Origin: a virus
Direction: 5' to 3' (one strand)
Length of the DNA stretch: 34,103 nucleotides
UHGV virus genome: UHGV-0238489
Shown here: positions 5,611 through 34,103 of the stretch, piece after piece
How the letters are laid out: the number at the start of each line of letters is the position of its first letter
Position numbering within the stretch: the first letter of the stretch is position 1
Translations under genes and position numbers: made by a program
Notes under the pieces: generated by a model
What the model saw: the letters and a program-made list of their open reading frames with translations, nothing else
Databases searched by the model: none
Told to the model about the DNA's origin: nothing

Positions 5611-5728
5611 TTTATATCCATCTAAATCATGGTGTTATGATGGCTGTGTGAGTTCTTTTCTGATTGGGGCTGCGTTCGACGGCTTGAAATGTTGTAAATG
5701 CCCATAATCTGGTTTAAAGTGTTTTTAT

Positions 5729-5833
5729 GCCAACGACTAGGAGTATCTCCAGTCATAAATGTTGGCCTCTACAGGCCTTTATATAGTGTTGCTCTTGTAC
5801 TGCCTTCTCTTTCGAGAGAAGGTATGTACAAGA
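5729..5833 (+). ncRNA. candidate structured non-coding RNA upstream of the RT (possible retron msr/msd-like or RT-associated ncRNA)
   Basis: The 327-bp non-coding leader contains two strong hairpins: 5729-5766 (gccaac...gttggc enclosing ggag-tat-ctcc) and 5793-5833 (a 17-18-bp stem, tcttgtac..ccttctct / agagaagg..gtacaaga, with a ttcg loop). I found no clear a1/a2 inverted repeat. Confidence 0.3.
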
Positions 5834-5936
5834 AGTAAAGCCTGCGAAGGGAGGGTGTCTGGGGTGAGGAAAGACTGAGAGTTAAAGCATTCATCTTAGA
5901 ATCCATTCAACTCAAAAAACAAAAGCCCAGCCAACG

Positions 5937-6926
5937 ATGAAACCCCTTAGTCTCGAAAAAGCCTTCAATATCGCATTCTTCGAAAAAGATTCCTTTCAAA
6001 ACTTTCTTTCGTTTGAACCATTTCAACAAACTAAATTTATAACCTTTGATGAAAGGTTAATTGCTGAGCCCAGTTCTAAACTAAAAGAGTATCACAAATT
6101 CATAAATGAATTTGTTCTTTCATACTTGAAAGTAAATAAGGATGTTGTGTTTTCGTATAGAAAAGGAAGCAGCACTTATGATGCAGTAAAACTTCATGCC
6201 TGTAGTAAGATATTCTTCAATACTGATATTAAAAACTTTTTCCCGTCGATAACTCGTGAATATGCACGATCAGTTTTAGTTGATAACTTATCGAACGTTC
6301 CCATTTCCGATTTAAATATACATCTGGATAAAATTTTAGATTATATTATTATCGATAATTCGTTGCCTGTAGGGTTCCCAACATCACCAGCTTTCAGCAA
6401 TGCCTGTTTATATGACTTTGATGTTGAGATGCAGCAATATTGTATTAACCATGAATATATATTCACGCGCTATTCAGATGATATTATTATTTCCTCTGAA
6501 AATGATGAGGGGTTTGAGAATATTAATTCTGTAGTAAGTGACCTGCTGGGTGAGTTTGGGAATGGGCATTTCAAACTAAACTCAGCAAAAACTAAATTGA
6601 TTAAAAAAGGCAGTAAGATTAAGCTGCTGGGGATGGTTATTTTACCATCTCAGATAGTCTCTGTTGATATTAAAATAAAAAGAAAACTTGAGCATTTAAT
6701 TCATTTTTATGTAACGGATAAAGATAAATTTATAGATTCTATAATAAAAGATCCTAAAGTTAAAACTAGCGGATTGAATAATAGCGAGATTTTGGAAAAG
6801 GGTGTTAATACAGTTTCTGGTCTTTTAAATCATATAAACACAATTGATAAGAGTTATCTCGATAAGCTAAAGAGAAAATACGGAAATACGATTGTCGATA
6901 TGCTTTTTTACAAGAATGTTAATTAA
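5937..6926 (+). CDS. reverse transcriptase, 329 aa (retron-type or Abi-type defence RT)
   Basis: RT motifs are readable in the translation: motif A NTDIKNFFPSI, motif B' LPVGFPTSPAFSN, motif C YSDD (FTRYSDDIIIS), motif D/E LNSAKTKLI. A NAxxH-like YDAVKLH and a VTG-like VSG are present. AT-rich codon usage contrasts with the phage backbone. Confidence 0.8.
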   Translation: MKPLSLEKAFNIAFFEKDSFQNFLSFEPFQQTKFITFDERLIAEPSSKLKEYHKFINEFVLSYLKVNKDVVFSYRKGSSTYDAVKLHACSKIFFNTDIKNFFPSITREYARSVLVDNLSNVPISDLNIHLDKILDYIIIDNSLPVGFPTSPAFSNACLYDFDVEMQQYCINHEYIFTRYSDDIIISSENDEGFENINSVVSDLLGEFGNGHFKLNSAKTKLIKKGSKIKLLGMVILPSQIVSVDIKIKRKLEHLIHFYVTDKDKFIDSIIKDPKVKTSGLNNSEILEKGVNTVSGLLNHINTIDKSYLDKLKRKYGNTIVDMLFYKNVN

Positions 6927-6927
6927 A

Positions 6928-8280
6928 ATGAAAATAAACATTGAGATCTCAAAAATCCAGCATGTTGAACATATGTCATTTGCTATTGATCTTTCTGAAA
7001 ATAAACTGACTTGCATTGTAGGAAAGAACGGTGCTGGAAAGACAACGTTAATCAAAGCAATTAAAAATTTACAATCAGCAGATACATTCATAAAGACATC
7101 TTCTAGATATATATTCAATCCTGACAGTAGCATAGTATATAATATTAATGATCAAAATATAGTATATGTCTATGATGAGAATTTGAAGGTAATAGACACT
7201 AAGCAAATAATTCCAGCAGATATTAAATCCAATCTTTATGTCGAGTTGCCCATTCCTCATGGAATGAGGTTCAATAACTTCCCAACACTTAGTAAAATTG
7301 ATACAGAACTTAGAAAAAGTATTGCGTTTGAAAACTATAGCGTTCCCGAGGATTTGATAAATATACTCAATGAGGTATATCAGTCTTCTTCTTACAATAA
7401 TCTTAAAGCATTTTCTGTAAAAAATGAAATTTTCTATTTCAGATTGAATGAGAACGGAACATACATAAGGGAGGATTACTTTAGCTCGGGTGAGTATTTC
7501 ATTTTGAATTTATTTAGAATGATTGAGCTCAAAAGAAAGTTCATTGTCATAGATGAGATAGATATATCACTAGACTCTTCGGCGCAAGTCCATCTTATAG
7601 CAGTGCTAAGGAAATATTGTCAGAGACACTCGGTGAATATTGTATTCACAACACATTCACTTGCTTTAATGCAAACGCTGAATGATGATGAATTGTACTA
7701 TATGTGCGAAAGTGATGCTGGAACTACAATTACAAATCGATCCTATAATTATATAAAAAGTACGCTTTTTGGATTTAAAGGATGGGATAAGTACATTCTT
7801 ACTGAAGATGAAGTTCTGCAAAACTTCTTAGAATATATAATTAATGCCTCTGGGAATGATTACTTCTACGAATACAAAATAATATATGTTGGTGGAGGAA
7901 CTAATGTCATTGATTTAATGCGTCGTAATGAGAGAGAGAGCTTTCTCACGACTCAACAGAATGTGATCTCAGTGTTAGACGGAGATCAATTAGGTCAAAG
8001 GCATGCTCGAGGTGAAAATATTTTATGCATACCTTTCCAAAGTGTTGAGAAGGATTTCTATCAAGCATACGGCCAAGATGAATCGATCCCGAGAATTACA
8101 ACTAGAGGTAACGATAAACTTGATAAGCAAGTTTATCGAGGGGTAGTGAAAACCTATAACAACGGTTGGGATGAAACTAGGGTTTTTGAATACCTTGAGA
8201 GGTTAAAGCCTGATGAGTGTGAGGCTTTCAGGCAAAAAATTAGAGCATTTCTCCAAAGAAATATTTCGCCAGAGGGTTGA
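6928..8280 (+). CDS. ABC-type ATPase with C-terminal Toprim-like domain (OLD-family-like nuclease ATPase), about 450 aa
   Basis: Walker A GKNGAGKTT, ABC signature-like FSSGEY, Walker B FIVIDEID, H-loop FTTHS. The C-terminus has a conserved acidic ILTEDE and a DxD VLDGDQ, as in Toprim. Start is 1 nt after the RT stop (alternative upstream ATGs at 6892 and 6916). Confidence 0.7.
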   Translation: MKINIEISKIQHVEHMSFAIDLSENKLTCIVGKNGAGKTTLIKAIKNLQSADTFIKTSSRYIFNPDSSIVYNINDQNIVYVYDENLKVIDTKQIIPADIKSNLYVELPIPHGMRFNNFPTLSKIDTELRKSIAFENYSVPEDLINILNEVYQSSSYNNLKAFSVKNEIFYFRLNENGTYIREDYFSSGEYFILNLFRMIELKRKFIVIDEIDISLDSSAQVHLIAVLRKYCQRHSVNIVFTTHSLALMQTLNDDELYYMCESDAGTTITNRSYNYIKSTLFGFKGWDKYILTEDEVLQNFLEYIINASGNDYFYEYKIIYVGGGTNVIDLMRRNERESFLTTQQNVISVLDGDQLGQRHARGENILCIPFQSVEKDFYQAYGQDESIPRITTRGNDKLDKQVYRGVVKTYNNGWDETRVFEYLERLKPDECEAFRQKIRAFLQRNISPEG

Positions 8281-31641: not shown

Positions 31642-31851
31642 ATGACTTTTGATGAATATATGCAAAAAACCAGAGAAATAAATGAGCAACTTCAAGAGAT
31701 TTCTATGCTAACGGCAAATCAAGCACTAACAAATTGCGCAAACTCATCCAATCCCGGCTTTGTTGATCTGATGCGTCGTCATGCAGAATTGACAATGCGC
31801 TCGTTTAAGCTTACTGAAGAGATGATGAAACAGTTAGCTATTGATAACTAA
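31642..31851 (+). CDS. hypothetical small protein, 69 aa, AT-rich moron between ogr and the terminator
   Basis: ORF in an AT-rich segment not present in the P2 backbone. Followed by a strong intrinsic terminator. Confidence 0.4.
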   Translation: MTFDEYMQKTREINEQLQEISMLTANQALTNCANSSNPGFVDLMRRHAELTMRSFKLTEEMMKQLAIDN

Positions 31852-31957: not shown

Positions 31958-31980
31958 GCCCCGCATTTGCGGGGCTTTTT
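31958..31980 (+). terminator. intrinsic terminator (gccccgc-attt-gcggggc then ttttt)
   Basis: Perfect 7-bp GC stem plus T5. The group II intron begins immediately downstream. Confidence 0.8.
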
Positions 31981-33896
31981 GTATGTGCGCCGGGCATGGC
32001 GCGTAGCGCCGTGACTGGCGCTGTTCTTCAACTGTGGTGGCTGAAGAACGACTAAGAGGTGAAAGTCCTCCACACACCCGGTGAGGGGAAGTGTTAGCGG
32101 AAGGCAAGGGTGTTCATCGCGAGGTGAAATCTGAAGGAAGCCGGATGCAAAATGCTGGCCTGACGAACAGGAAGCGGTTAAGGCGGCGCAGCGGGGTAAG
32201 GTGGCATACATCACCAAAGCCCGATACTCACACGGAACGCTGTGACGTAGAGCCGACAGGCATAAGCAGGAAAGTCGCGCGAATTACCCCGGGAGATCTG
32301 CCGTCCTGTCAGTGTGCTACCGGCGTCGTAAGGTGCCGGGATGGGGCGGCAGAAGTCAGCCGACGCTGTAGTAGTGCTGCAAAACCGGCAGCATGAAGGG
32401 CCGAACATGATTAACCGTGATTAGGACATCCGAACCCGATGATGATTAATGAAGCACAAGCGCAGGCAACTGCGGCCAGCGGCAGAGGAGACGGACGGTA
32501 TCCGTCAGGGCTGCATGATGGCGCTGAAATCAGCACGGCGGCGGGTGGGCAAACGAAAGCGGAAGTGCCGCTGACGATGGAAGCGGTGATAACGAGAGAA
32601 AACCTGATGCTGGCTTATCAGCGCGTGGTGGAAAACAAAGGCGCGGCGGGGGTGGATAACCTCAGCGTGGCGGAGTTGAAACCGTGGCTGAAGAAGAACT
32701 GGCGCAGTGTCAGGCAGGCATTGATTGACGGAAACTACCAGCCGCGGGCAATACGCCGGATGGATATCCCGAAGCCGGATGGCGGCGTGAGAATCTTAGG
32801 CATCCCGACGGTGGTGGACAGGCTTATCCAGCAGGCGATAGCGCAGCAGTTAAGCGCCATCGTGGACAAAAGCTTCTCAGACTCCAACGGCTTCCGGCCG
32901 GGGCGCAACGCATGGCAGGCGGTGCAACAGGCACAGCGTTACATACGGGGCGGCAAACGGTGGGTGGTGGATATGGATCTGGAGAAGTTCTTTGACCGGG
33001 TGGATCACAGACTCCTGATGACGCGTCTGGCCAGAACGATAAAGGACAGGCGGGTGCTGAGACTGATACGCCGCTACCTGAAAGCGGAAATAGTCCGGGA
33101 CGGGCAAAGGGAGAAACGGCAGGAGGGCATGCCGCAGGGCGGCCCGCTGTCGCCGTTACTGTCGAACATCCTGCTGGATGAACTGGATAAAGAACTGGAG
33201 CGTCGTTGACACAGCTTCTGCCGCTACGCAGACGACTGCAACATCAACGTAAGCAGCCGGAAAGCGGGCGACCATCTGCTGAAGAACATCAGGGCGTTCG
33301 TGGAGAACAAAATGAAACTGAAGGTGAATGAGAAGAAGAGCGCGGTGGCGCGCCCGTGGGAGCGGAAGTTCCTCGGGTACAGTGTGACATGGCACAAACA
33401 GGCGAAGCTGAAAATAGCCCTGACGAGCGTGAACAGGCTGAAGGAGAAAGTCCGCAGTCTGACCACGGGAAACCGGAGCAAATCAGTGAAAGCGACAATC
33501 AATGCCCTGACGCCAGTGCTGCGTGGATGGATAAGCTACTTCAGGCTGACGGAAGTCAGAGGAGTGCAGGAAGAGCTGGACGGCTGGATCAAACGGAAAC
33601 TGCGGTGCCTGTTGTGGCGGCAGTGGAAGAGGCCGGGAACCCGGACGAAGAACCTGCAAAGAGCGGGGCTGAGTAAGGACAGGGCGATGATCTCAGCGTA
33701 CAACAACCATGGGCCATGGTGGAACTCAGGGTCAAGCCATATGAATCAGGCGATAAAGAATGCGTGGTTCAGCAGGCAGGGTCTGATATCACTGCTGGAA
33801 CAGCAGAGGCAGTTCCAGTGTTAACATGAACCGCCGTATGCGGAGCCGCATGTACGGTGGTGTGAGAGGACGGCGGGAGTGATCCCGCCTCCTACT
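31981..33896 (+). mobile_element. group II intron (bacterial, class C-like), about 1.9 kb, inserted just after an intrinsic terminator
   Basis: GTGCG-like 5' end at 31986. An RT/maturase ORF sits inside. Domain V-like hairpin at about 33829-33860 (ccgtatgcgg-agc-cgcatgtacgg) and a domain VI-like bulged hairpin at about 33864-33895. Insertion after a terminator stem-loop is typical of IIC introns. Boundaries are approximate (about +/-10 nt). Confidence 0.7.
32439..33824 (+). pseudogene. group II intron-encoded RT/maturase interrupted by a single in-frame TGA (33207-33209)
   Basis: ORFs 32439-33209 and 33300-33824 are in the same frame. The sequence reads ...LDELDKELERR-TGA-HSFCRYADDCNINV..., so the stop replaces the codon just before the YADD motif. 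RT motifs (GIPTVVDRLIQQA, LPQGGPLSPLLSNILL) precede a maturase-like C-terminus. Confidence 0.7.
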
Positions 33897-33961
33897 CGAT
33901 CGATGTGGTCAATGTGTGGACATTGTAATAAATAAATCCATTTATTTCATTAGGTTAGAAC

Positions 33962-33984
33962 AAAAAAATAAGCCCGTGTAAGGG
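33962..33984. repeat. attR: att core copy (attR side, next to ogr)
   Basis: Exact 23-bp direct repeat of 159-181. The right copy continues as agatt, matching the P2 core as I recall it. Confidence 0.75.
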
Positions 33985-34103
33985 AGATTACACAGGCTAA
34001 GGAGGTGGTTCCTGGTACAGCTAGCATTTTATGGGTTATGTTTTTCAGCGAAACGGATGATAACCTTAATAAATGCAGCTGTATGTGATCGGTTTCTAAG
34101 AAT

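Follow-up and report, generated by a model that had tools for sequence, protein, structure and literature searches.

Class C (IIC) group II introns were set apart from other classes by the criteria of Toor et al. 2006 (PMC1702495), according to which the distal stem of domain V is 2 bp shorter, a CGC triad replaces AGC in that domain, and an 11-nt bulge with AGGAA forms an epsilon' motif specific to IIC introns. B.h.I1 of Bacillus halodurans, a biochemically characterised IIC intron (PMC1702495), combines a short domain V containing CGC with an AGGAA bulge. Among the proteins encoded by such introns, the GsI-IIC reverse transcriptase (RT; PDB 6AR1) and the Eubacterium rectale IIC maturase (PDB 7UIM/7UIN) combine RT, X/thumb and a short C-terminal DNA-binding region in a layout without an endonuclease domain. 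In E. coli, an element of strain CFT073 with an open reading frame (ORF) of class C was named E.c.I6 (Leclercq & Cordaux 2012, PMC3522654, Table S2); its hosts were E. coli CFT073, ED1a, S88 and APEC O1, all four copies seen had disrupted ORFs inside mobile elements, and extinction dynamics in Enterobacteriales were described in the same study (PMC3522654). In this report, we describe a group II intron in UHGV virus genome UHGV-0238489, a stretch of 34,103 nucleotides (the window) that contains a complete P2-like prophage. This element is a copy of E.c.I6, a known and common E. coli intron, and to that extent the biology is already known; our analysis makes it very probable that an E.c.I6 class C intron retrohomed into a P2-like phage, then lost its RT/maturase and is now carried as a decaying passenger.

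Over the alignable 1.8 kb, the window intron is 95-97% identical to the CFT073 element (4320108-4321914). The two have identical 5' and 3' ends, stand behind a terminator hairpin (tttttgttat/GTGCG in CFT073, the slash marking the junction here and below), are followed by C, and have a disrupted ORF inside a mobile element. They differ in that the CFT073 copy is 1807 nt long, with internal deletions of about 19 nt and about 80 nt, and lies in the selC island, whereas the window copy is full length minus 3 bp, lies in a P2-like prophage and bears other lesions (G258 to stop, Y271N and a 3-bp deletion). Intron-related sequence is present in 1267 of 5426 complete E. coli genomes, with a near full-length copy in 833; many of these copies are annotated as intact ltrA, and other E. 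coli chromosomes and plasmids harbour intact copies of 1919 nt whose ltrA encodes 462 aa. B.h.I1 differs in host phylum and in sequence, and self-splicing and the use of stem-loops by the E. coli intron would be expected by analogy with it. The intact E.c.I6-type protein aligns along its whole length (residues 47-456) with the GsI-IIC RT and the E. rectale maturase (E = 7e-141 and 1e-107) and has the same domain layout; the window protein differs from both in that it ends at codon 257 and cannot include the YADD active site.

Boundaries, class and target site of the intron

The boundaries were set by five differing flanking contexts together with intron-free relatives, the window being aligned with copies in a tellurite-resistance island (L003), on an afa/dra plasmid (L004), in L005 and L006, in CFT073 and in Escherichia sp. 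contigs. The group II intron spans 31985-33900 (+), 1916 nt, from a 5' end GTGCG to a 3' end ...CTCGAT (...CUACUCGAU), and the 5' GUGYG and 3' AY termini are both present at the exact exon junctions (GTGCG at 31985 and ...GAT at 33900). The original prediction, made from the letters alone, had placed it at 31981-33896, and both of those ends are 4 nt off. Three Rfam intron models match the element, all above their gathering scores: group-II-D1D4-3 at 32113-32282 (+) (139.3 bits, E = 5e-29), group-II-D1D4-1 at 32317-32401 (+) (63.5 bits) and Intron_gpII, which covers domains V/VI, at 33829-33900 (+) (48.5 bits). Covariance-model alignment, which had been proposed as a check, thus agrees with the earlier view of a group II intron behind a terminator with domain V/VI-like hairpins at its 3' end, and the RT/maturase domains RVT_1 and GIIM were found as well. 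The G+C content of the intron is 58%, compared with 51% in the remaining window and 43% in the preceding kilobase, and we found no evidence contradicting the identification of the intron.

For the empty site, the flanks were joined at the junction and queried against the 5426 complete E. coli genomes. Numerous P2-like prophages, or what is left of them, located at the cyaR/yegQ site are uninterrupted across the junction (...gcggggctttttgtat/cgatgtggtca...), and two such relatives, L007 and L008, read ...gccccgcaaatgcggggctttttgtat-cgatgtggtcaatgtgtggaca..., that is, ...ctttttgtat/cgatgtgg.... Among deposited phage genomes (INPHARED), the empty site occurs only in the 2.4-kb phage TP fragment, which is contiguous with it only from 3 nt upstream of the junction onward. 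The intron therefore occupies a site left unoccupied in related prophages. The earlier expectation that the flanks would join contiguously in relatives was borne out, and the join predicted for them, ...cttttt/tcgatcgatgtgg... (...cttttt/tcgatcgatg...), proved to be shifted by 4 nt.

Three structural elements of the intron bear on its class:

32129-32139 (+): epsilon' bulge AUCUGAAGGAA, with AGGAA at 32135-32139 and 11 unpaired positions in the Rfam D1D4-3 alignment.
33831-33860 (+): domain V, CCGCCGUAUGCGGAGCCGCAUGUACGGUGG, 30 nt and not 34, the triad at its base being CGC and not AGC as in other classes.
33863-33898 (+): domain VI, from the Rfam alignment and the fold, with the bulged A33895 as putative branch point.

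Aligned to the Rfam Intron_gpII consensus, domain V leaves a 4-nt gap in the distal stem and places CCGCC under GAGCC. The fold of domains V and VI has a z of -6.1, and A33895 is predicted to be the sole unpaired base on the 3' side of the domain VI stem; the minimum free energy fold of domains I-III was uninformative (z = -1.6), and the Rfam covariance alignments were used instead. The pairing between intron-binding site 1 (IBS1) and exon-binding site 1 (EBS1) is 4 bp, within the IIC range of 3-4 bp. The protein points in the same direction: for the intact 462-aa product of L003, the closest solved relative is the GsI-IIC RT (6AR1) at 473 bits; the E. rectale IIC maturase (7UIM) follows at 364 bits and further solved IIC relatives at 293 and 289 bits, whereas LtrA (IIA) reaches only 150 bits and the T.el4h protein (IIB) 119 bits. 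Taken together, domain V, the AGGAA bulge, the 4-nt EBS1, the 5'-exon hairpins and the protein similarity support membership in class C. The GUGCG 5' end and the RVT_1 and GIIM domains are common to all classes and would equally suit an intron of another class (IIA, IIB or bacterial D/E/F) that had come to lie behind a terminator by coincidence; but the shortened domain V and its CGC, the bulge with AGGAA, an EBS1 of 4 nt and the hairpins at all nine sites (see below) are all IIC features, and the bit scores of the protein with IIC proteins are three times those with IIA or IIB proteins, which leaves this alternative very improbable.

The target site and the elements that would recognise it are as follows:

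31958-31980 (+): Rho-independent terminator from a terminator scan, with the stem at 31958-31975 (7 bp, all GC, with a 4-nt loop) and the T-run at 31976-31980.
31981-31984 (+): IBS1 GTAT, the final four bases of the 5' exon and the complement of the candidate EBS1 (AUAC).
32206-32209 (+): EBS1 AUAC, in the terminal loop of the domain I hairpin GGUGGCAUACAUCACC, proposed from the Rfam alignment, the fold and covariation with IBS1.
32250 (+): candidate EBS3 G, in an internal loop of the D1D4-3 model and opposite the IBS3 C33901.
33901 (+): IBS3 C, the first base of the 3' exon.

The terminator was found where the original prediction had put it, with its all-GC stem of 7 bp and TTTTT; it folds at -9.2 kcal/mol, a stability reached by none of 200 shuffles, lies downstream of ogr and a 69-aa ORF, and is also present, unoccupied, in L007 and L008. 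The insertion point is 9 nt past this ogr-side hairpin. The same arrangement recurs elsewhere: at all nine independent insertion sites, a hairpin ends 3-14 nt before the junction and the site ends in T(A/G)T, and seven of the nine hairpins fold better than all 200 shuffles. The nine sites have no common sequence upstream of -4, and the upstream stem-loop, which in IIC introns is usually an intrinsic terminator, stands where other intron classes have IBS2. The terminator hairpin, as DNA or RNA, is the probable homing target of the intron. The proposal of a class C intron targeting a terminator stem-loop thus holds, with the IIC features found, EBS3 pairing aside.

Covariation identifies the likely EBS1. 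The 5' exons at other sites end in GTAT, CTAT or TTAT; in the variant L014, the EBS1 loop is ACAA, and the L011 copy of the same genome follows TTGT, a perfect compensatory match. A second AUAC (32224-32227) was considered as EBS1 and rejected, being unchanged in L014, whereas the terminal-loop AUAC shifts along with IBS1. IIC introns, like IIB introns, pair IBS3 with EBS3 through a single base; the position of EBS3 was taken from the Rfam internal loop and not from a solved structure. IBS3 is C in all six contexts that have a readable 3' flank and carry the window-type G or the CFT073 A at the EBS3 candidate; L014 has C at the candidate and G as the first 3'-exon base, compared with G and C in the window, which is one compensatory event, and the A/C combination of CFT073 is a misfit.

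Decay of the intron-encoded protein

The frame of the intron-encoded protein (IEP), its lesions and a shorter frame within it are located as follows:

32439-33824 (+): IEP (RT/maturase) pseudogene, 461 codon positions plus the terminal stop, as aligned to the intact 462-aa L003 protein.
33207-33209 (+): TGA nonsense codon, from GGA; codon 257 of the window and Gly258 in intact numbering.
32886/32887 (+): 3-bp deletion (GCT), changing FSDSSYGFR to FSDSNGFR in the RT motif SSYGFRPGR, in the window and A15 only.
33246-33248 (+): Y271N, TAC to AAC just past YADD, changing YADDCNIYV to YADDCNINV, in the prophage lineage.
33312-33824 (+): 170-aa ORF for the maturase (X) domain, GIIM by Pfam, its start provided by a lineage-specific CTG to ATG change.

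Pfam finds RVT_1 (E = 4e-28) and GIIM (E = 5.5e-22) in the IEP frame, which lies in domain IV between the D1D4 and domain V/VI matches, and no HNH/endonuclease domain. The RVT_1 match spans the first 256 codons, and the 204 codons past the TGA cover what remains of RVT_1, followed by GIIM. The frame had been described as intact apart from one TGA; it does have exactly one internal stop, and the 3-bp deletion and Y271N are present in addition. The TGA does not directly precede the YADD codons, as had been thought, and lies six codons before Y264 (YADD being 264-267), in the context ...ELERRGHSFCRYADD of the RT palm. Base 33207 is T in the window, in the E. coli strains A15 (L001) and KV7 (L002) and in the IMG/VR prophage contigs L015 and L016, and G in L003, L004, L005, L006, L010 and L014; the split between TGA and GGA matches the context, with five prophage-borne copies on one side and six others on the other. 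Judged by the sequences of these copies, the TGA is a GGA-to-TGA nonsense mutation, and in RefSeq the copies of A15 and KV7 are entered as ltrA pseudogenes that contain an internal stop.

The original prediction had also allowed for a sequencing error and for a recoded or read-through codon. The first would fit a single-base difference from intact copies; however, the T found in A15, KV7 and the two IMG/VR contigs, which are mutually different at other positions, gives an error of sequencing or assembly in the window virtually no chance, and we regard it as ruled out because five independent records that differ elsewhere have the same base. The second is strongly disfavoured. If the TGA were recoded or read through, as selenocysteine, as tryptophan or by programmed read-through, the IEP would be full length and active, in keeping with a frame that runs for 204 further codons with recognisable RT and GIIM domains and with a ribozyme that is nearly intact. 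Nevertheless, this codon is GGA (Gly) in six copies with 95-99% identity elsewhere, within the conserved context ...ELERRGH.F.RYADD, and the Y271N change beside YADD in the same lineage, together with the in-frame deletion in SSYGFRPGR of the window, is what relaxed constraint would yield. E. coli reads TGA as a stop, and recoding is in our view highly unlikely.

The lesions also suggest an order of events. Since the nonsense mutation is common to all five prophage-borne copies, it appears to have come first, with the deletion arising later in a sublineage. Y271N and L293M occur in the prophage lineage, of which the window and KV7 are the copies compared in full, and T119I occurs in the window alone. 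Domains V and VI do not differ from those of intact copies, and there are two window-specific changes in the ribozyme, at 32367 (C-G to U-G in the D1D4-1 model) and at 32309. The ribozyme is thus nearly unchanged, and it might retain the ability to splice or move with the help of an intact E.c.I6 protein from another copy.

The 170-aa ORF raises a different possibility. A C to A change at 33312 makes its ATG, GGAG lies 6 nt upstream at 33302-33305, and in A15 and KV7 the PGAP annotation has an intact GIIM protein of 170 aa (WP_171817703.1) at the corresponding place. Most likely, this ORF is an accident of decay. Alternatively, the element might be partly domesticated, the 170-aa X-domain protein and the 256-aa N-terminal fragment together still promoting the splicing of read-through transcripts. 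The derived ATG with its Shine-Dalgarno-like GGAG, common to the window and KV7, would fit such a history, as would the PGAP calls in both strains and the unchanged domains V and VI. However, only three derived substitutions in all define the lineage, a chance ATG among them arises easily, and the proposal turns on that one substitution; the N-terminal fragment later gains a deletion in a conserved motif in the window; and no gene is interrupted at the site, so that no splicing is needed there. In addition, group II maturase activity requires the RT as well as the X domain, as in LtrA. A working split maturase is therefore improbable, and just as improbable is that the prophage lineage turned the IEP into a split or stand-alone maturase with selection keeping the ribozyme spliceable on late-operon read-through from the ogr side; if true, a split maturase would represent an early step of intron domestication inside a phage.

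Carriage of the intron in a P2-like prophage

Three attachment-site features frame the prophage:

160-186: attL core, with 2 of 27 mismatches to attR (GGGCGTTT versus GGGAGATT).
33904-33922 (+): direct repeats TGTGGTCA (33904-33911) and TGTGGACA (33915-33922), P2-type Int arm-binding sites of attR/attP.
33963-33989 (+): attR core, an exact match to the P2 core sequence, with 0 expected by chance.

The att cores lie about 33.8 kb apart with the intron included, and the difference between attL and attR is consistent with a crossover within the identical left part of the core. The prophage has integrase and portal domains, an ogr gene recognised by Pfam Ogr_Delta and the D-ogr gene order, and neighbouring genes are annotated as late control D, tail and tape-measure. 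The Ogr_Delta match and the attR core agree with the earlier placement of the intron between ogr and attR, from where it travels with the phage. The consensus of P2-type Int arm sites is tgTGGaCa (PMC3448106); in the window, the arm repeats begin 3 nt past the intron and are conserved in intron-free relatives, and the intron would thus lie just outside the recombination arm and leave integration and excision undisturbed. Because it stands after the terminator and outside both genes and att arm sites, its cost to the phage is probably small apart from the added 1.9 kb, and it needs no splicing.

The prophage-intron junction is present in two of the 5426 complete E. coli genomes, A15 and KV7, and, with these two included, at least four public records other than the window have the identically placed prophage copy of this mutated intron. 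Beside yegQ, the chromosome of A15 has a ParDE pair that KV7 does not have, and this difference suggests that the phage moved the already dead intron between hosts. Among the deposited phage genomes (INPHARED), the intron was not found, the only match being one of 83% over 197 nt to a Pseudomonas element, and a literature search returned nothing specific on group II introns in P2-like prophages.

Our data suggest a model whereby an active E.c.I6 ribonucleoprotein would have recognised the terminator hairpin and GTAT/C in phage DNA, and the intron RNA would have reverse-spliced into the terminator DNA, followed by reverse transcription, as inferred from known class C introns; priming would come from a nascent DNA strand, because the protein is without an endonuclease domain. 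The nonsense mutation would have arisen once, at or soon after the insertion, and from then on the intron would be immobile on its own and spread only as phage cargo. Several points weigh against parts of this model. The nonsense mutation could predate the insertion, the inserting RNA having been mobilised by the protein of another copy; the EBS3 assignment hangs on one covariation event; the decayed CFT073 copy fits neither the EBS1 nor the EBS3 pairing; and the apparent absence of EBS2 is deduced solely from the lack of conserved sequence upstream of -4. Even so, retrohoming of E.c.I6 followed by loss of its RT/maturase remains, at the high probability given above, our explanation of the locus.

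Two further features lie near the intron:

31642-31851 (+): 69-aa ORF between ogr and the terminator, with no Pfam match.
33966-34051 (-): cyaR small RNA, a CyaR Rfam match of 100.7 bits.

The terminator hairpin of cyaR overlaps the P2 att core, so that the 3' end of cyaR in a lysogen comes from the prophage end. In L007 and L008, a gene for a trypsin-like peptidase takes the position of the 69-aa ORF, with the terminator and the att arm kept, and the slot between ogr and the terminator looks like a slot for cargo genes. Elsewhere in the window, the region 5937-8280 (+) encodes a second, unrelated RT of 329 aa (PADLOC RT_I-B, E = 8e-111) and an overlapping 462-aa protein (PADLOC ATPase-Toprim_I-B, E = 1e-179). 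From its sequence matches, this pair looks like a type I-B retron defence system, with a likely non-coding RNA region at about 5690-5935, and it occupies what we take to be the variable tin/old slot of P2; Rfam gave no credible match for a retron non-coding RNA upstream of the second RT.

Relatives of the intron and significance of the locus

Two groups of E.c.I6-related sequences outside the prophage lineage deserve mention. The draft assembly of Escherichia sp. MOD1-EC7003 (L011, L012 and L014) is interrupted at several copies of an E.c.I6 variant whose EBS1 is ACAA and whose GGA codon is intact, and this variant appears to be an active multi-copy relative using IBS1 TTGT. The contig CAMBHV010000085.1 (L013), labelled as a Clostridia metagenome-assembled genome, is E.c.I6-like in its first approximately 270 nt, which follow a weak hairpin and GTAT, and then diverges; mis-binning of an enterobacterial contig, a chimeric assembly or recombination of the intron might explain it.

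The locus is best annotated as an ltrA pseudogene within an intron at 31985-33900. The natural EBS1/IBS1 covariation pair defines a target rule for E.c.I6, namely a hairpin, a spacer of 3-14 nt and (G)TAT/C, and the insertion so close to the Int arm repeats indicates that a P2-like attP can accommodate an additional 1.9 kb directly beside the arm, at a distance of 3 nt. Together, these observations make the window a clean, well-dated case of a known pattern, in which a class C intron homes to a terminator, loses its protein and survives only as cargo of a larger mobile element.

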